Positions 5,595-50,061 of a stretch of 64,000 nt of DNA are shown piece after piece. The number at the start of each line of letters is the position of its first letter. Within the stretch, counting starts at the first letter, position 1. The translations under genes and the position numbers were made by a program. This DNA comes from Escherichia coli (lineage in GTDB: Bacteria; Pseudomonadota; Gammaproteobacteria; Enterobacterales; Enterobacteriaceae), in NCBI RefSeq assembly GCF_048403405.1, contig NZ_CP183129.1; one strand, 5' to 3'. The notes beneath the pieces were generated by a model. That model did no database searches and was not told where the DNA came from. It was given only the letters and a program-made list of their open reading frames with translations.

Positions 5595-5687
5595 GGTGAG
5601 GTGGCCGAGAGGCTGAAGGCGCTCCCCTGCTAAGGGAGTATGCGGTCAAAAGCTGCATCCGGGGTTCGAATCCCCGCCTCACCGCCA
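5595..5687 (+). tRNA. serV: tRNA-Ser (anticodon GCU)
   Basis: 93-nt cloverleaf with long variable arm, anticodon loop ctgctaa, ends in CCA; first gene of the cluster. Confidence 0.92.
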
Positions 5688-5690
5688 TTT

Positions 5691-5767
5691 GCATCCGTAG
5701 CTCAGCTGGATAGAGTACTCGGCTACGAACCGAGCGGTCGGAGGTTCGAATCCTCCCGGATGCACCA
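5691..5767 (+). tRNA. argV: tRNA-Arg (anticodon ACG)
   Basis: 77-nt sequence gcatccgtagctcagctggatagagtactcggctacgaaccgagcggtcggaggttcgaatcctcccggatgcacca; anticodon loop ctacgaa; copy name assigned by position. Confidence 0.9.
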
Positions 5768-5901
5768 TATTCTACGTACTTTCAGCGATGAAGGTATGGA
5801 AGAGGTGGCGGTAATAACCGCAGGCACCAGGGAGGATAACGTTGCTTTAGCAACGGCCCGAAGGGCGAGCCGCAAGGCGAGTAATCCTCCCGGATGCACC
5901 A
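5768..5901 (+). repeat. tRNA-Arg 3'-end-bearing paralogous element, copy A
   Basis: 134-nt element after the first tRNA-Arg, ending in a second copy of the tRNA-Arg 3' end (..tcctcccggatgcacca); paralogous to copy B at 6323-6455. Confidence 0.6.
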
Positions 5902-5965
5902 TCTCTTACTTGATACGGCTTTAGTAGCGGTATCAAAAAATCTGCAGTAAAGTAAGTTTCCCGAT

Positions 5966-6042
5966 GCATCCGTAGCTCAGCTGGATAGAGTACTCGGCTA
6001 CGAACCGAGCGGTCGGAGGTTCGAATCCTCCCGGATGCACCA
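5966..6042 (+). tRNA. argY: tRNA-Arg (anticodon ACG)
   Basis: Identical 77-nt tRNA-Arg sequence; copy name assigned by position. Confidence 0.88.
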
Positions 6043-6105
6043 TCTCTTACTTGATATGGCTTTAGTAGCGGTATCAATATCAGCAGTAAAATAAATTTTC
6101 CCGAT

Positions 6106-6182
6106 GCATCCGTAGCTCAGCTGGATAGAGTACTCGGCTACGAACCGAGCGGTCGGAGGTTCGAATCCTCCCGGATGCACCA
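6106..6182 (+). tRNA. argZ: tRNA-Arg (anticodon ACG)
   Basis: Identical 77-nt tRNA-Arg sequence; copy name assigned by position. Confidence 0.88.
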
Positions 6183-6245
6183 TCTCTTACTTGATATGGC
6201 TTTAGTAGCGATATCAATATCAGCAGTAAAATAAGTTTTCCCGAT

Positions 6246-6322
6246 GCATCCGTAGCTCAGCTGGATAGAGTACTCGGCTACGAACCGAGCGGTCGGAGGT
6301 TCGAATCCTCCCGGATGCACCA
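6246..6322 (+). tRNA. argQ: tRNA-Arg (anticodon ACG)
   Basis: Identical 77-nt tRNA-Arg sequence; copy name assigned by position. Confidence 0.88.
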
Positions 6323-23862: not shown

Positions 23863-24294
23863 TTACATCCGCATGGAAACGGCCAGACGGTTAAAACAAT
23901 TCATCAGCCCGATGGCAAACGTTAAGTCGCTGATCTCTGCTGCGCTGAAATGCTCAAGCAAAGGCTGATAAACCTCGTCTTCCGCATGGGTTCTGGCAAT
24001 TTCGGTTACCGATTCCGCCCATGCCAGCGCCGCCCGCTCGCGTTCATCAAAATGATGGCTTACGCGCCAACCTGCCAGGGCGTCCAGTTTGTGCTGTGGC
24101 ACGCCGGATTTGCGCAATGCTTTGCTGTGCATCTCCAGACAAAATGCGCAGCCGTTGATTTGCGAGACGCGCAAATAAACTAACTCCATCAACGTGGTAT
24201 CCAGCGTGCTATTTTCCAGTGCCGTTTTGGCCTGCACTAGTGCGTTATACACTGCCGGGCTAAGTTCGTAGTAAGGCTGACGTAATGTAGTCAT
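23863..24294 (-). CDS. AhpD-like / carboxymuconolactone decarboxylase family protein
   Basis: 143-aa ORF with aggaga SD; contains CxxCxxxH (GCAFCLEMH), the AhpD-type redox motif. Confidence 0.8.
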   Translation of the reverse strand: MTTLRQPYYELSPAVYNALVQAKTALENSTLDTTLMELVYLRVSQINGCAFCLEMHSKALRKSGVPQHKLDALAGWRVSHHFDERERAALAWAESVTEIARTHAEDEVYQPLLEHFSAAEISDLTFAIGLMNCFNRLAVSMRM

Positions 24295-24381
24295 ACAGTT
24301 TCTCCTCTTATTAACGCCCGCAATGTAGCACTATAATGGACTGCTAAAGAGAGCCATAAATTACCTAAAAAAGCAGACCAT

Positions 24382-25716
24382 ATGCCGCGCTATCAGGATA
24401 TCGCCCGTCAGTTAAAAACGGCTATTGAGCAAGGGGAACTGAAACCCGGCGCAAGGCTGCCTTCAAGTCGTACCTGGTCGCAGGAGCTGGGGGTGTCTCG
24501 ATCCACTGTCGAAAATGCGTATGCTGAGCTGGTGGCGCAAGGATGGCTGATCAGGCGGGGACAGGCTGGCACATTTGTCAGTGAGCGGATATATCCGCAA
24601 CAATCTACTGTACAAGTTGTAGCTTTTGCCGGTGAAAGTCAGCAACCGTTGCCATTTCAAATGGGATTACCCGCACTCGATCTCTTTCCGCGAGAGCTGT
24701 GGGCGCGGGTGATGGGGCGTCGCCTTCGTACCCAGACGCGCTTTGATTTGGCGTTAGGCGATGTCTGCGGTGAGGTGGCGTTGCGCGAGGCAATAGTTGA
24801 TTACTTACGCGTTTCACGTGGGATTGATTGTCAGCCAGAGCAGGTCTTTATCACTCACGGTTATGCGGCCTCAATAGCTTTAATTCTGCACGCGCTGGCG
24901 AAACCGGGAAACGGGATGTGGATAGAAGATCCCGGCTTTCCACTGATTCGCCCGATTGTCACTCGCCATGATGTGGAAATTTTGCCTGTGCCGGTTGATG
25001 ACAATGGACTGGATATCACAAGCGGAATACAAAATTATCCTGATGCGCGTTTTGCCCTGATAACACCAGCACACCAAAGTCCGCTGGGTGTGGCGCTCTC
25101 TTTAGCGCGCAGGCATCAGATACTGGAATGGGCAGATCGTAGTCAGGCATGGATTATTGAAGATGATTATGACAGTGAGTTTCGCTATCACGGTAAGCCG
25201 TTACCGGCGTTAAAAAGTCTCGACGCACCGCAGCGGGTAATTTATGCCGGAACATTCAGCAAAGCGCTATTTCCTGCATTGCGCTGTGCGTGGCTGGTGT
25301 TGCCGGTGAAGCAAATTGCACAATTCCGCCACCAGGCGTCACTGGCTCCATGTGCGGTACCTGTTCTATGGCAGAACACACTGGCAGACTTTCTTCGCGA
25401 GGGGCATTTCTGGCGGCATCTGAAGAAAATGCGTCAGCATTATGCTCAACGTCGGCAATGGATTGAGCAAGCGTTGACGCAGCAAGGATTTCAGGTTGTG
25501 CCGCAGAAAGGTGGTATCCAGATGGTGATCAGAATGATAGGCGATGATATTGCCCATGCGCGTAAAGCCAATGCTGCAGGCCTTGCGGTGCAGGCACTTA
25601 GCGACTGGCGTATCCGTTCAAGTGGGGAAGGTGGATTACTGCTCTCGTTTACTAATATCGTTAACGAAGGTATGGCGCGACAGGTAGCACAACAATTACG
25701 TAAAGCCTTAAGCTAA
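24382..25716 (+). CDS. MocR/GabR-type transcriptional regulator (GntR HTH fused to PLP-dependent aminotransferase-like domain)
   Basis: 444-aa ORF; N-terminal GntR-family wHTH (..SSRTWSQELGVSRSTVENAYAELVAQGW..) and large C-terminal aminotransferase-fold domain (..IYAGTFSKALFPALR.. with the expected Lys); divergent from the AhpD-like gene. Confidence 0.82.
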   Translation: MPRYQDIARQLKTAIEQGELKPGARLPSSRTWSQELGVSRSTVENAYAELVAQGWLIRRGQAGTFVSERIYPQQSTVQVVAFAGESQQPLPFQMGLPALDLFPRELWARVMGRRLRTQTRFDLALGDVCGEVALREAIVDYLRVSRGIDCQPEQVFITHGYAASIALILHALAKPGNGMWIEDPGFPLIRPIVTRHDVEILPVPVDDNGLDITSGIQNYPDARFALITPAHQSPLGVALSLARRHQILEWADRSQAWIIEDDYDSEFRYHGKPLPALKSLDAPQRVIYAGTFSKALFPALRCAWLVLPVKQIAQFRHQASLAPCAVPVLWQNTLADFLREGHFWRHLKKMRQHYAQRRQWIEQALTQQGFQVVPQKGGIQMVIRMIGDDIAHARKANAAGLAVQALSDWRIRSSGEGGLLLSFTNIVNEGMARQVAQQLRKALS

Positions 25717-43658: not shown

Positions 43659-46600
43659 ATGAACAGGACCAGTCCCCATTATTGTCGCCGCTCAGTACTT
43701 TCCTTATTGATATCTGCCTTGATATATGCTCCGCCCGTGATGGCGGCCTTTACTACTAATGTTATTGGTGTGGTAAACGATGAGACTGTAGATGGCAGTC
43801 AAAAAGTAGATGAACGAGGTACAACAAATAATACTCATATTATCAACCATGGCCAGCAGGATGTTTATGGTGGGATATCTAACGGAAGTATTATTGAATC
43901 TGGTGGATATCAAGATGTAGGAAGGCATAACAATTATATGGGGCAGTCTAATAATACAACCATTAACGGGGGCAGACAGTCAATTCATGACGGAGGGATT
44001 TCCACAGGTACAATAATTGAGAGTGGCAATCAGGACGTTTATACAGGTGGTATCAGCAATGGAACGACAATTAAGGGTGGTAATTCACACATAAGTGGGG
44101 GGACTGCGAATGGAACCATCATTGATGGTGGAGGGCAGACAGTAACAACTCAGGGGCATGTTGATGGTACAACGATAAATAAGTCCGGTTATCAGGACAT
44201 CACGCAAGGAAGTCTGGCGACGAACACAACCATAAATGGTGGTCGACAGTATGTTGAACAGAGCACAGTAGAAACAACCACCATTAAAAATGGCGGTGAG
44301 CAAAGAGTATATGAGAGCCGTGCGCTGGACACGACGATTGAAGGCGGAACTCAGTCTCTGAATAGTAAGTCAACGGCAAAAAATACTCAGATCTATTCTG
44401 GTGGTACGCAAATTGTTGATTACACCAGCACCTCGGATGTTATTGAAGTTTATTCCGGTGGCGTGCTTGATGTTAGTGGTGGTACGGCAACAAATGTTAC
44501 CCAGCACGATGGTGCAATTTTAAAAACAAACACTAACGGTACGACGGTGAGCGGTACGAATAGTGAAGGGGCATTCTCCATCCACAATACCGTGGCAGAG
44601 AATGTGTTGCTGGAAAACGGTGGTCATTTAGACATAAACGCATATGGTTCGGCAAATAAGACGATTATTAAAGATAAAGGAACAATATCAGTTTTAACGA
44701 ATGCTAAAGCTGATGCGACCCGAATAGATAATGGCGGCGTTATGGATGTTGCCGGAAACGCGACAAATACCATAATTAATGGTGGCACACAGAATATTAA
44801 TAATTATGGTATTGCCACGGGCACCAATATCAACAGCGGAACACAAAATATCAAGAGCGGCGGGAAAGCTGACACGACAAATATATCCTCTGGGAGCCGG
44901 CAGGTTGTTGAGAAAGATGGTACGGCAACTGGCAGCAATATTAGCGCCGGAGGCTCGCTGATTGTCTATACCGGCGGTATTGCACATGGGGTTAACCAGG
45001 AGACGGGCAGTGCTTTAGTTGCCAACACGGGCGCAGGGACTGATATCGAAGGATACAATAAGCTCTCTCACTTCACTATTACCGGAGGTGAGGCTAATTA
45101 TGTTGTGCTGGAAAATACCGGCGAACTGACGGTAATGGCTAAAACCTCGGCGAAAAATACTACCATTGATGCTGGCGGTAAGCTGATTGTCCAGAAGGAG
45201 GCTAAAACAGATAGCACCAGACTTAATAATGGTGGCGTTCTGGAGGTTCAGGACGGTGGTGAGGCTAAGCATGTTGAGCAGCAATCCGGCGGCGCATTAA
45301 TTGCTTCCACGACCTCCGGAACACTTATCGAAGGAACCAACAGTTATGGTGATGCTTTCTACATCAGGAATTCAGAAGCTAAAAATGTAGTGCTGGAAAA
45401 CGCTGGCTCATTAACAGTCGTCACTGGTTCCCGGGCAGTTGACACGATTATTAATGCCAACGGCAAAATGGATGTTTATGGAAAAGATGTTGGTACTGTA
45501 CTTAATAGTGCTGGTACCCAAACAATATATGCCAGTGCCACTTCTGAAAAAGCAAATATCAAAGGTGGCAAGCAAACGGTATATGGTTTAGCCACTGAGG
45601 CAAATATCGAAAGTGGTGAACAAATTGTTGATGGTGGGTCAGCAGATAAAACGCACATCAATGGCGGTACGCAAACCGTTCAGAATTATGGTAAGGCGAT
45701 CAATACCGATATCGTCTCTGGCCTACAACAAATTATGGTAAACGGGACAACGGAAGGTTCCATTATTAATGGCGGTTCACAGGTAGTTAATGAGGGCGGT
45801 CTGGCTGAAAACTCGGTGCTTAATGACGGCGGCACTCTCGATGTGCGGGAGAAAGGCAGCGCAACGGGGATACAGCAAAGTAGCCAGGGCGCGTTGGTTG
45901 CAACCACCAGAGCGACGCGGGTCACAGGGACACGCGCTGATGGCGTCGCGTTCAGCATTGAGCAGGATGCGGCGAACAATATCCTGCTGGCAAATGGCGG
46001 CGTGTTAACCGTGGAGTCAGACACCACTTCCGCCAAAACACAGGTCAATGCGGGCGGGCGGGAGATCGTCAAAACAAAAGCCACTGCGACAGGCACGACG
46101 CTCACCGGCGGCGAACAAATCGTCGAGGGGGTGGCGAATGAGACAACGATTAACGACGGCGGAATACAAACAGTTTCGGCTAACGGTGAGGCAGTAAAAA
46201 CAACGATTAATGAAGGCGGTACGCTGACAGTCAACGATAATGGCAAAGCGACAGATATCATCCAGAACAGCGGTGCCGCTCTCCAGACGAGCACGGCTAA
46301 CGGTATTGAAATCAGCGGTACTCACCAGTACGGCACCTTTTCCATTGCCGGAAATTTAGCGACCAATGCGTTGCTGGAAAATGGCGGTAATTTATTGGTA
46401 TTAGCAGGTACCGAAGCCCGTGACTCCACGGTTGGCAAGGGTGGTGCAATACAAAACCTGGGTCAGGACTTCGCCACAAAGGTTAATTCTGGTGGACAAT
46501 ATACCCTCGGTCGGTCAAAAGATGAGTTTCAGGCTTTGGCCCGGGCAGAAGATCTACAGATCGCTGGCGGGACGGCAATCGTCTACGCAGGTACGCTGGC

Positions 46601-48233
46601 GGATGCATCGGTCAGTGGCGCGACAGGAAGCCTGTCGTTAATGACGCCACGGGATAATGTTACGCCAGTTAAACTTGAAGGGGTGGTCCGGATTACCGAT
46701 AGCGCGACATTAACTATCGGAAATGGCGTCGATACGACGCTTGCCGACCTGACGGCTGCCAGTCGGGGCAGTGTCTGGCTTAACAGCAATAATTCCTGTG
46801 CAGGCACCAGCAACTGCGAATATAGAGTAAACAGTTTACTCCTCAACGACGGTGATGTTTATTTATCAGCACAAACAGCAGCGCCTGCCACAACTAACGG
46901 TATCTACAATACGCTGACCACCAGTGAACTTTCCGGCAGCGGTAATTTCTACCTGCATACCAACGTTGCAGGCTCCCGGGGCGATCAACTGGTCGTCAAC
47001 AACAACGCCACTGGCAATTTTAAAATCTTTGTTCAGGATACCGGCGTCAGCCCTCAGTCTGACGACGCGATGACGCTGGTGAAAACAGGGGGAGGGGATG
47101 CTTCGTTTACGCTGGGTAATACCGGCGGTTTCGTTGATCTTGGGACCTATGAGTATGTCCTGAAAAGCGACGGCAACAGCAACTGGAACCTGACCAATGA
47201 TGTCAAACCCAACCCGGACCCCAACCCAAATCCGAAACCGGATCCAAAACCAGACCCAAAACCGGATCCGAAACCAGACCCGACTCCCGATCCAACGCCG
47301 ACACCCGTCCCGGAGAAACGCATCACGCCTTCTACGGCAGCCGTACTCAATATGGCAGCAACATTACCGTTGGTCTTTGATGCTGAGCTAAACAGTATTC
47401 GCGAGCGGTTGAACATAATGAAAGCGAGTCCACACAACAATAATGTCTGGGGGACGACGTATAACACCCGTAATAATGTCACCACCGATGCGGGTGCCGG
47501 GTTTGAGCAGACGCTGACCGGAATGACGGTGGGGATCGATAGCCGTAATGATATTCCTGAGGGGATTGCGACGCTGGGCGCTTTTATGGGTTATTCCCAT
47601 TCACATATTGGTTTTGATCGTGGAGGGCATGGCAGTGTGGGCAGTTATTCTCTGGGGGGCTATGCCAGCTGGGAACATGAAAGTGGTTTCTATCTGGACG
47701 GTATCGTGAAGCTGAACCGCTTTGAAAGTAACGTAGCCGGTAAAATGAGCAGCGGTGGAGCCGCCAACGGCAGTTATCGCAGCAACGGGCTGGGCGGTCA
47801 CATTGAAACCGGGATGCGATTTACCGATGGTAACTGGAACCTGACGCCGTATGCATCGTTAACGGGGTTCACCGCTGATAACCCCGAATATCATTTATCC
47901 AATGGCATGGAATCGAAATCAGTCGATACCCGTAGTATATATCGTGAACTGGGCGCAACGCTGAGTTACAACATGCGTCTGGGGAACGGCATGGAAGTTG
48001 AGCCGTGGCTGAAGGCGGCTGTGCGCAAAGAATTTGTCGATGATAACCGGGTGAAAGTGAATAATGACGGTAATTTTGTCAATGATTTGTCGGGCAGACG
48101 TGGAATATACCAGGCAGGTATTAAAGCCTCATTCAGCAGTACGTTAAGCGGACATCTCGGGGTGGGGTATAGCCATGGTGCCGGTGTGGAATCCCCGTGG
48201 AACGCGGTGGCTGGTGCGAACTGGTCGTTCTGA
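43659..48233 (+). CDS. ypjA: Adhesin-like autotransporter (type Va secretion) with repetitive passenger domain
   Basis: ORF track 43530-48233; likely start ATG 43659 (or 43650) giving signal peptide MNRTSPHYCRRSVLSLLISALIYAPPVMA; Gly/Thr/Asn-rich repetitive passenger, Pro-rich PNPDPNPNPKPDPKPDP linker (about 47200-47310) and C-terminal beta-barrel ending ..AGANWSF. Confidence 0.75.
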   Translation: MNRTSPHYCRRSVLSLLISALIYAPPVMAAFTTNVIGVVNDETVDGSQKVDERGTTNNTHIINHGQQDVYGGISNGSIIESGGYQDVGRHNNYMGQSNNTTINGGRQSIHDGGISTGTIIESGNQDVYTGGISNGTTIKGGNSHISGGTANGTIIDGGGQTVTTQGHVDGTTINKSGYQDITQGSLATNTTINGGRQYVEQSTVETTTIKNGGEQRVYESRALDTTIEGGTQSLNSKSTAKNTQIYSGGTQIVDYTSTSDVIEVYSGGVLDVSGGTATNVTQHDGAILKTNTNGTTVSGTNSEGAFSIHNTVAENVLLENGGHLDINAYGSANKTIIKDKGTISVLTNAKADATRIDNGGVMDVAGNATNTIINGGTQNINNYGIATGTNINSGTQNIKSGGKADTTNISSGSRQVVEKDGTATGSNISAGGSLIVYTGGIAHGVNQETGSALVANTGAGTDIEGYNKLSHFTITGGEANYVVLENTGELTVMAKTSAKNTTIDAGGKLIVQKEAKTDSTRLNNGGVLEVQDGGEAKHVEQQSGGALIASTTSGTLIEGTNSYGDAFYIRNSEAKNVVLENAGSLTVVTGSRAVDTIINANGKMDVYGKDVGTVLNSAGTQTIYASATSEKANIKGGKQTVYGLATEANIESGEQIVDGGSADKTHINGGTQTVQNYGKAINTDIVSGLQQIMVNGTTEGSIINGGSQVVNEGGLAENSVLNDGGTLDVREKGSATGIQQSSQGALVATTRATRVTGTRADGVAFSIEQDAANNILLANGGVLTVESDTTSAKTQVNAGGREIVKTKATATGTTLTGGEQIVEGVANETTINDGGIQTVSANGEAVKTTINEGGTLTVNDNGKATDIIQNSGAALQTSTANGIEISGTHQYGTFSIAGNLATNALLENGGNLLVLAGTEARDSTVGKGGAIQNLGQDFATKVNSGGQYTLGRSKDEFQALARAEDLQIAGGTAIVYAGTLADASVSGATGSLSLMTPRDNVTPVKLEGVVRITDSATLTIGNGVDTTLADLTAASRGSVWLNSNNSCAGTSNCEYRVNSLLLNDGDVYLSAQTAAPATTNGIYNTLTTSELSGSGNFYLHTNVAGSRGDQLVVNNNATGNFKIFVQDTGVSPQSDDAMTLVKTGGGDASFTLGNTGGFVDLGTYEYVLKSDGNSNWNLTNDVKPNPDPNPNPKPDPKPDPKPDPKPDPTPDPTPTPVPEKRITPSTAAVLNMAATLPLVFDAELNSIRERLNIMKASPHNNNVWGTTYNTRNNVTTDAGAGFEQTLTGMTVGIDSRNDIPEGIATLGAFMGYSHSHIGFDRGGHGSVGSYSLGGYASWEHESGFYLDGIVKLNRFESNVAGKMSSGGAANGSYRSNGLGGHIETGMRFTDGNWNLTPYASLTGFTADNPEYHLSNGMESKSVDTRSIYRELGATLSYNMRLGNGMEVEPWLKAAVRKEFVDDNRVKVNNDGNFVNDLSGRRGIYQAGIKASFSSTLSGHLGVGYSHGAGVESPWNAVAGANWSF

Positions 48234-48244
48234 CCATCAACGAA

Positions 48245-48267
48245 AAAGCCCACATCTGTGGGCTTTC
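48245..48267 (+). terminator. Candidate intrinsic terminator after ypjA
   Basis: aaaaagcccacatctgtgggcttt hairpin (8-bp stem) 12 nt after the ypjA stop. Confidence 0.45.
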
Positions 48268-48393
48268 ATATCACCAAGAGCCGCGGCTCCTTTGCGTATC
48301 CTTTTATGTCTCCTCACCGTCTGGTCGGTGTCTTGCTGAGACTTCTAACTTCCTGTTTTTGTTGGTGTTGTCCTTGCACCGTCCAATCATGAT

Positions 48394-48756
48394 TGGTGGA
48401 GCTGGCGGGAGTTGAACCCGCGTCCGAAATTCCTACGTCCTCGGTACTACATGCTTAGTCAGTCTTTACATTCGCTTGCCAGCTGCGGACGGACACGCCA
48501 CTAACAAACTAGCCTGATTAAGTTTTAACGCTTCAACCCCAGGCAGGGCTTCCACGCGATCTCTTTTGGGTTTGACCTCTCTTGATCCCCGTCCTAAGAG
48601 CGGAGGCTAGGGAGAGAGGGCTCTAAGCAGGTTATTAAGCTGCTAAAGCGTAGTTTTCGTCGTTTGCGACTATTTTTTGCGGCTTTTTACGAGGCCAACC
48701 GCCCCTCGGCATGCACCTTGGGTTTCGCAAATCCCGTCGAATCCAGAATCAGCCCC
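48394..48756 (-). ncRNA. ssrA: tmRNA (SsrA, 10Sa RNA)
   Basis: 363 nt; minus-strand sequence begins ggggctgattctggattcgacggg and ends ..ctcccgccagctccacca; contains the tag ORF gcaaacgacgaaaactacgctttagcagcttaa (ANDENYALAA). Confidence 0.97.
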
Positions 48757-48970
48757 AATGTGTAACGGTAAGTATACCAGATTCATGAGTGCCATGACCA
48801 GCCTCAATGGCGTTATCGTTAAAGATTTATCACCCATGTAGCCTGATTTTTATTCGATTAAGCAATGGGATGGCAACATTTGGGTCGGATGTGATAGCCA
48901 ATAAGATGTGCATTCGCGCCGCCGGAGAGGGAGGCGCGGTGAGGAGCGGATCAATAATTGCAGTGCAGGT

Positions 48971-49453
48971 TTAACGGTGGGCGTTTTTCATGATACGCGC
49001 TTTATCCACCTGCCATTCGCGTTCTTTGATATCTGAACGTTTATCATGCTGTTTCTTACCTTTGGCGACGCCGATTTTCACTTTGCACCAGGCATTTTTC
49101 CAGTACAGGGAGAGCGCCACTACGGTATAGCCTTCTCGATTGACGCGACCGTACAATGAGTCCAGTTCGCGCTGGTTGAGAAGTAACTTGCGGGTACGGG
49201 TAGGATCGCACACCACATGCGTGGAGGCCACAGCCATTGGCGTGATGTTAGCTCCAAACAGAAATGCCTCTCCGTCACGCAGAAGGACGTAGCTGTCGCT
49301 GATATTGGCTTTTCCTGCGCGCAGGGATTTAACCTCCCAGCCTTGCAGGGCAAGTCCCGCCTCGAACTCTTCTTCGATAAAGTATTCGTGACGGGCGCGC
49401 TTGTTAAGCGCGATGGTCGCTGAACCAGGTTTATGTGCTTTTTTCTTCGTCAT
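48971..49453 (-). CDS. smpB: SsrA-binding protein SmpB
   Basis: 160-aa [50 protein letters not shown]..; immediately upstream of ssrA. Confidence 0.96.
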
Positions 49454-49584
49454 AAGCGTCGTGAATCATCGGTAATCTGAAATCGAAAACACCCCATATC
49501 AATCCTGCGGGGGACAAGGCTCTATCTTAGCATGAACCCGATGTTACCCAGCGCCGGGATAGCGTTTTTTTTACAGCAGGATAA

Positions 49585-50061
49585 ATGATATTATTTGTTG
49601 GATTTTTGTTGATGGAAATTGTTATGCCTCAGATTAGCCGGACCGCACTGGTACCCTACAGCGCGGAGCAAATGTATCAGTTAGTGAATGACGTTCAGTC
49701 TTATCCTCAGTTTTTGCCGGGTTGTACCGGAAGTCGGATTCTGGAGTCCACTCCTGGGCAGATGACTGCGGCGGTAGATGTCTCTAAGGCTGGGATCAGC
49801 AAAACGTTTACTACCCGCAACCAGTTGACCAGTAACCAAAGTATTCTTATGAATCTGGTGGATGGGCCGTTCAAGAAATTGATCGGTGGATGGAAGTTTA
49901 CGCCGCTGAGCCAGGAGGCGTGTCGTATCGAGTTTCATCTCGATTTTGAGTTTACCAATAAGTTGATTGAACTCGCCTTTGGTCGCGTGTTTAAAGAGCT
50001 GGCGGCTAATATGGTCCAGGCTTTTACGGTTCGTGCGAAAGAGGTTTACAGTGCCAGGTAA
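49585..50061 (+). CDS. ratA: Ribosome association toxin RatA (SRPBCC/polyketide cyclase-like)
   Basis: 158-aa ORF; conserved core from [21 protein letters not shown].. (alternative ATG at 49624); divergent from smpB as in E. coli. Confidence 0.85.

Follow-up and report, generated by a model that had tools for sequence, protein, structure and literature searches.

The tmRNA gene, ssrA, is reportedly a hotspot at which multiple integrases act. In the genome of E. coli K-12 MG1655, the 22-kb element CP4-57 (annotated at 2755941-2777971, intA to ypjF) parts ssrA from the autotransporter gene ypjA. Its integrase gene intA begins 204 bp after ssrA, and the element ends at psaA, a 14-bp remnant of ssrA situated 160 bp before ypjA. 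Excision of CP4-57 in K-12 has been reported to delete T357 of ssrA, which encodes U357, the wobble partner of G3 in the acceptor stem, and loss of this residue has been reported to inactivate trans-translation (PMC10107115; PMC3105296). The ssrA elements Fels-2, SopE-phi and Ecoc48X of strain CFT073 carry an undamaged distal copy of the gene 3' end (PMC10107115, Table 1), and the tmRNA gene has been described as an integration hotspot for many element types (Bobay et al. 2013, PMC3603311). The locus examined here displays the vacant form of this multi-integrase target and offers nothing new beyond that framework; a vacant tmRNA-gene attachment site with wild-type tmRNA is an ordinary, well-documented polymorphism that is already known.

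We analysed a stretch of E. coli DNA of 64,000 nucleotides (the window). Exactly 160 non-coding bp lie between the ypjA stop codon (48231-48233) and the 3' end of ssrA, consistent with the earlier note, which had estimated about 160 bp. The same note had reported that integrase and phage genes were missing at the junction, and none was present in the 160-bp gap according to the ARAGORN and open reading frame data and the annotation of strain TUM14771. Positions 1-61300 of the window are colinear with TUM14771 with zero gaps and 99.98-99.997% identity. The TUM14771 annotation across this range contains chromosomal genes only and no integrase, with the gene order pncC, recA ... glaH, an amylase-like gene, ileY, ypjCB, a recombinase fragment, ypjA, ssrA, smpB ... 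dgcN.

The junction was then compared with both ends of CP4-57. A three-way alignment revealed that the window unites two halves of K-12 sequence, namely the ssrA side of attL and the ypjA side of attR. In BLAST comparisons, window 41997-48416 corresponded to the attR side and 48393-49849 to the attL side, with the overlap representing the core, and the 160-bp flank differed from the K-12 attR flank by 5 substitutions with no indel. The window thus harbours the exact unoccupied attB of CP4-57, as had been claimed, in the form of a precise join of the two bacterial arms. K-12 shares with the window the ssrA gene, the 160-bp ypjA flank and the genes on both sides. It differs in that CP4-57 lies between the two halves, in that the attR copy of the core is one T short and reads CAGC-CCACCA, and in that prophage DNA would supply the terminator after ssrA, in the form of a different hairpin with a U-run that lies within CP4-57 at a distance of about 75-80 nt from ssrA. 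A search of the 64 kb allowing up to 3 mismatches gave one match, the ssrA 3' end and its trailer each occurring only once, and a low-stringency BLAST of the core and trailer against the window returned only the self match and chance matches. Likewise, attL/attR-type direct repeats of the ssrA 3' terminus were sought across the 64 kb, and none was found. We consider it very probable that the region comprises the tmRNA gene and its resident 3' flank, with no mobile element at the ssrA attachment site.

The tmRNA gene itself was identified with ARAGORN and with Rfam RF00023, which matched over the full model (positions 1-374) with a score of 292.8 bits, the gathering score being 47. A base-by-base comparison with K-12 revealed 1 substitution in 363 nt, a T>C change at position 320 (window 48437). 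The tag peptide is ANDENYALAA, its frame ending in ALAA and a stop (ARAGORN prints two stop symbols after the peptide). The acceptor stem is intact, with the G3-U357 pair and the CCA end, and the 3' end (...CCGCCAGCTCCACCA) is the same as that of K-12. T357 is present at window 48400, where the window reads CAGCTCCACCA. The smpB gene is situated upstream of ssrA on the same strand, and a candidate sigma-70-like promoter is found 15 nt upstream of the ssrA 5' end. The features of the locus are listed in the table.

Table. Features in and around the ssrA-ypjA junction (window coordinates; strand left empty where none is assigned)
Feature	Position	Strand	Description
Variable low-GC segment	37488..48242		10,755 bp; contains the amylase-like gene, ileY, ypjCB, the Pin-type fragment and ypjA
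Amylase-like ORF	37625..39877	-	Intact, 750 aa
ileY	40437..40512	+	tRNA, anticodon CAT; inside the variable segment
ypjCB	41269..42723	+	Single 484-aa ORF, DUF5507+DUF5508
Serine recombinase fragment	43084..43251	+	Pin/Hin invertase type (pinH in K-12); from the annotation of TUM14771 and K-12 and the translation
ypjA/ehaD	43530..48233	+	Autotransporter adhesin gene; AIDA/Ag43-type repeats, C-terminal beta-barrel; convergent with ssrA
160-bp spacer, putative resident ssrA 3' trailer	48234..48393	-	From alignments to K-12, relatives and phages
Hairpin, putative terminator	48243..48267		Stem core GCCCAC/GTGGGC at 48248-48263; from fold and stem compensation
Perfect 14-bp palindrome CCAATCATGATTGG	48383..48396		Spans the mature CCA end of the tmRNA
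44 nt identical to phage-carried segment	48393..48436		Salmonella phages RE2010 and SEN8, Escherichia phage Cartapus, others
ssrA (tmRNA gene)	48394..48756	-	363 nt; from ARAGORN, Rfam RF00023 and base-by-base K-12 comparison
Last 15 nt of ssrA, P4-family IntA-type core	48394..48408	-	Equals the K-12 ssrA overlap with the annotated CP4-57 left end
Equivalent of phage LLS attP core TGAACCCGCGCCCGTAATTC	48413..48432		2 mismatches in the window; T-arm of the tRNA-like domain
Sigma-70-like promoter, candidate	48771..48800	-	TGGTCA-18-TATACT, extended -10 TG; consensus match only
smpB (SsrA-binding protein)	48971..49453	-	NCBIfam NF003843, 222 bits

The 160-bp spacer, from its alignments and folding, appears to be a resident 3' trailer of ssrA with its own terminator. 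A hairpin lying 10 nt past the ypjA stop folds at -15.6 kcal/mol (z -3.8) and is followed on the minus strand by UUUUUCGUU; the whole trailer folds at z -3.4. A consensus terminator scanner did not list the hairpin, probably because the maximal stem absorbs part of the T-run. E. coli B2, E. whittamii and E. albertii all have a conserved copy of the trailer adjoining ssrA. Alignment across relatives showed that conservation extends as far as the T-run and that the sequences past it are unrelated, and a compensatory A-T to G-C change keeps the hairpin stem. In addition, when the window is compared with UPEC 536 and E. whittamii, their homology picks up again precisely at position 48243, which is the hairpin foot. 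The hairpin is likely the intrinsic terminator of ssrA, and the same structure probably also terminates ypjA in a back-to-back arrangement. RNAalifold analysis of the trailers predicted five hairpins with no net covariation signal, and a search of the trailer for Rfam families gave only sub-threshold chance matches. The distance between a 21-mer of the trailer and the tmRNA 3' end is exactly 63 nt in the window and likewise in E. albertii, E. whittamii, Enterobacter hormaechei and Pseudenterobacter. We had taken the copies in Enterobacter and Pseudenterobacter as a sign of deep ancestral conservation, and downgraded this evidence on finding that the phage-family gene phrog_17982 follows there; because of this neighbour, these copies are probably phage-borne.

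Based on these features, ssrA would be transcribed leftwards from the promoter at about 48771-48800. The primary transcript would extend beyond the mature CCA end by approximately 150 nt, covering the structured trailer, and would end at the hairpin, back-to-back with the ypjA stop. The trailer would be trimmed off to give the 363-nt tmRNA. The palindrome CCAATCATGATTGG at the mature end is kept in 7 of the 8 trailers compared, those of phages LLS and CT01 included; E. albertii has one substitution at its centre, and the palindrome is not retained in the divergent prophage copy of strain UTAK-6.

We searched phage genomes for the ssrA 3' end. RE2010, SEN8 and Cartapus share only the last 44 nt of the gene, and RE2010 (Felsduovirus, P2-like) annotates its 44-nt ssrA segment as a terminal repeat. 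Phage 500465-1 and Klebsiella phages match the window through at least 48470, corresponding to 77-78 nt of ssrA. Escherichia phage LLS (PQ299149) carries the last 39 nt of ssrA together with the whole trailer and the hairpin (88.5% identity across 190 nt of query sequence), and this copy is annotated as 'tmRNA pseudogene / attP'. The LLS attP thus resembles the window in the ssrA 3' end, the trailer and the hairpin. It differs in that phage genes, including an integrase and an excisionase, follow the copy, whereas in the window the rest of ssrA lies on one side and ypjA on the other. Parts of the trailer were also found in Ayreon, the PhiR12 series and the Citrobacter phage phiNP. Judging from these matches, the last 15-78 nt or so of ssrA would act as recombination cores for several integrase families, those of the P4/CP4-57 type using the extreme 3' end, RE2010-like phages the last 44 nt, and the LLS type a core in the T-arm. 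As the cores of several integrase families are present, the vacant site would constitute an available landing pad.

As a separate observation, several temperate phages and lambdoid prophages carry a copy of the whole 150-nt trailer and putative terminator (83-88% identical), and not of the ssrA 3' end only. One further example is 'plasmid unnamed3' of strain CT01 (NZ_CP081794.1), a circular molecule of 43.7 kb that is a lambdoid phage genome with a dusA-type integrase, linked to a dusA fragment. This phage retains a degenerate ssrA 3' end and trailer as an attP arm, which suggests a swap of the integration module.

The identity of the window trailer forms a continuum, with 89% to UPEC 536, 89% to E. 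whittamii, 86% to LLS and 83% to CT01. The flanking DNA of the window is 96.7% identical to that of 536, against 89% in the trailer. Taking into account this difference and the 83-86% identity of the phage copies, descent of the chromosomal trailer need not be strictly vertical, and phage copies may occasionally replace it.

To estimate how widespread the vacant form is, 5,426 complete E. coli genomes were surveyed. The contiguous arrangement ypjA-spacer-ssrA-smpB of the window, equivalent to the joined attL and attR flanks of K-12, was present in 1,384 of them. Another 709 genomes had the empty junction of the UPEC 536 type, without ypjA, so that the site is vacant in at least 2,093 genomes, at least 39% of the total. 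In the UPEC 536/ST131 type, about 330 bp separate the end of the trailer, which adjoins ssrA, from glaH. UPEC 536, ST131 and E. whittamii are like the window in having ssrA with the same trailer and putative terminator and no integrated element. They differ in that the trailer is followed by approximately 330-430 bp and glaH, the segment with the amylase-like gene, ileY, ypjCB, the pin fragment and ypjA being absent. A shorter query, consisting of the trailer and half of ssrA, was contiguous in 2,532 of the 5,426 genomes. We rejected this figure as a count of vacant sites, as some of these genomes hold lambdoid prophages with a trailer copy of their own. Such a copy was found adjoining ssrA in 2011C-4315 and UMNF18, the two that were sampled (about 95% identity). 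Because phages and prophages bring a trailer copy with them, lysogens look empty to a short junction query.

With regard to occupied sites, the match to the window ended at the ssrA 3' end (48393/48394) in roughly half of the sampled rows, which were drawn from across the ranking. The occupants seen at ssrA were CP4-57 in K-12, P4-like satellites encoding psu, ogr and an integrase, the P2-like prophage of KL53, and effector-carrying lambdoid prophages such as that of UTAK-6. The P4-like satellite at ssrA in strain 2013C-3277 (psu, ogr/delta, integrase) bears a gene pair for an AAA ATPase and a DUF4435 protein, which we take to resemble the PARIS defence system.

We considered whether the site was once occupied, as the earlier note had left it as a naive or cured attB. 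Cured K-12 derivatives lacking CP4-57, such as the laboratory strain DTU-1, are like the window in their ypjA-160 bp-ssrA architecture, and DTU-1 served as a positive control. The cured derivatives differ in that their ssrA lacks T357 and measures 362 nt, whereas the window keeps T357. The K-12-type excision scar (CGCCAGC-CCACCA, with T357 missing) was not found in the ssrA gene of the window. We also searched the 5,426 genomes for exact matches to the junction lacking T357, represented by two 56-mers carrying the spacer variant of the window or that of K-12. The window variant gave 0 exact matches. The K-12 variant gave 13, with ssrA annotated beneath the match only in DTU-1; the other 12, in natural genomes, had no annotated feature under the match. 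In KL53, the one locus of the 12 that was inspected, the match lies next to ypjA and represents the distal attR remnant belonging to a P2-like prophage; that the 12 matches are not in ssrA is judged from the feature column and this locus. With the two spacer variants queried, the deletion of T357 in a functional ssrA was thus seen only in a laboratory strain. The KL53 remnant also indicates that the damaged core is not restricted to integrases of the CP4-57/P4 type.

With T357 intact, a cure of the CP4-57 type, by a P4 integrase, is excluded at the level of sequence; the site was not vacated in the way that CP4-57 leaves K-12. The unoccupied state described in the earlier note stands, and no observation in this analysis speaks against it. 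A different course would be that an ancestral element at ssrA was later excised precisely, restoring a wild-type tmRNA gene. Site-specific excision is conservative, so that in general a single sequence fits a naive and a precisely cured site alike, and elements with an intact distal 3' copy, such as Fels-2, SopE-phi and Ecoc48X, would leave no scar (PMC10107115). Moreover, over half of the complete E. coli genomes are without a verified empty junction, and gain and loss must consequently be frequent. Against these points, the 64-kb window contains no scar, remnant or repeat, the P4-integrase route is closed by T357, and the scar at a functional ssrA was confined to DTU-1. We regard a past occupation followed by precise excision as unlikely, and favour a tmRNA gene with its resident flank and no element at the site.

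We then turned to the DNA beyond the putative terminator. The segment at 37488-48242 has a GC content of 42.3%, compared with 51.2% elsewhere in the window. An ST131 strain lacks it, as do UPEC 536 and E. whittamii, in which 333 bp and 429 bp, respectively, take its place. The ypjA ORF comprises 1,567 codons, and the PGAP start in the near-identical TUM14771 corresponds to window 43659; the name ypjA/ehaD was taken from the annotation of this strain (99.98% identical). Within ypjA, a repeat with a 12-nt period at 47208-47309 encodes a Pro-rich linker (PNPDPNPNPKPD...) before the beta-barrel. K-12 has ypjCB split into ypjC and ypjB, and its counterpart of the amylase-like ORF, ygaQ, is annotated as a pseudogene. 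The earlier note had viewed ypjA, a recombinase fragment and a pentapeptide ORF as an older degraded islet. A variable low-GC block abutting the putative ssrA terminator does exist, displaying presence/absence polymorphism and a deviant composition. On the other hand, annotation and profile matches revealed no integrase and no phage structural or regulatory gene in the segment, and a repeat search and BLAST found no att repeats of the ssrA or ileY ends in the window. The recombinase fragment is present, but its 56 codons, from translation and annotation, are a piece of a Pin-type serine invertase, which has no relation to ssrA integration. The analysis did not confirm the pentapeptide ORF; YpjCB consists of DUF5507 and DUF5508, and the other small ORFs have no such repeat. 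We see nothing in these data that would tie the segment to integration at ssrA.

The segment could in principle make the site occupied rather than empty, if the trailer and the 10.7-kb ypjA segment were what is left of an old element that, in the manner of LLS, had come with an ssrA 3' end and trailer of its own and had later lost its integrase and distal att. Phages and prophages do carry the trailer copy (83-88%) with their own genes directly after it, the low-GC segment starts exactly where the putative trailer terminator ends (48243), and it holds a recombinase fragment and a tRNA gene. In its trailer, the window is also equally distant from B2 (89%) and from the phage copies. These resemblances are countered by several observations. 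No distal remnant of ssrA or the trailer was found near glaH or elsewhere in the window, the recombinase fragment derives from a serine invertase and not an integrase, and the segment has no phage structural or regulatory gene. In K-12, the trailer lies on the bacterial side of CP4-57 attR and was therefore resident before CP4-57 arrived, and strains without the segment also possess the trailer. A decayed element is thus very unlikely. An assembly artefact, in which a prophage was collapsed or dropped, had been raised as an objection by the earlier note, but no evidence in its favour was found. It is hardly conceivable because 1,384 complete genomes, produced by independent projects, share the identical junction and the window is gap-free against a closed genome.

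A vacant site with its resident flank is of small practical value. The strain provides a wild-type, unoccupied ssrA landing site and could receive CP4-57-like islands, P4-like satellites, and phages of the P2-like or lambdoid type. The prophage-excision switch reported in K-12 does not act on the tmRNA of this strain, and the window can serve as a natural reference for the undisturbed 3' flank and putative terminator of E. coli ssrA. The only slightly unexpected by-product is that several phages copy the trailer and putative terminator in full rather than the gene 3' end alone. A speculative reading of this by-product, which we consider rather improbable, is that the trailer of about 150 nt is a conserved, structured part of the tmRNA precursor, required for proper termination or 3' processing or serving as a 3'-external-spacer RNA, that phages must copy and whose copies are exchanged. 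If this were true, phages using ssrA would copy the trailer into their attP arm so that lysogeny spares the tmRNA. Repeated exchange between chromosome and phage would explain why the trailer divergence among lineages is similar to that between chromosome and phage. Strains like the present one would express the native trailer, and K-12 one supplied by the prophage.

Two further observations concern other parts of the window. ARAGORN predicted a tRNA-Arg(tcg) at 5711-5782 on the minus strand, overlapping argV (5691-5767, plus strand) inside the serV-argVYZQ cluster (5595-6322); this prediction is probably a false positive. Between ygaM and nrdH, at about 23863-25716 as judged from the colinearity with TUM14771, the window contains genes of the PLP-dependent aminotransferase family and the carboxymuconolactone decarboxylase family. 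The two genes are presumably absent from this position in K-12, and are also present in UPEC 536.
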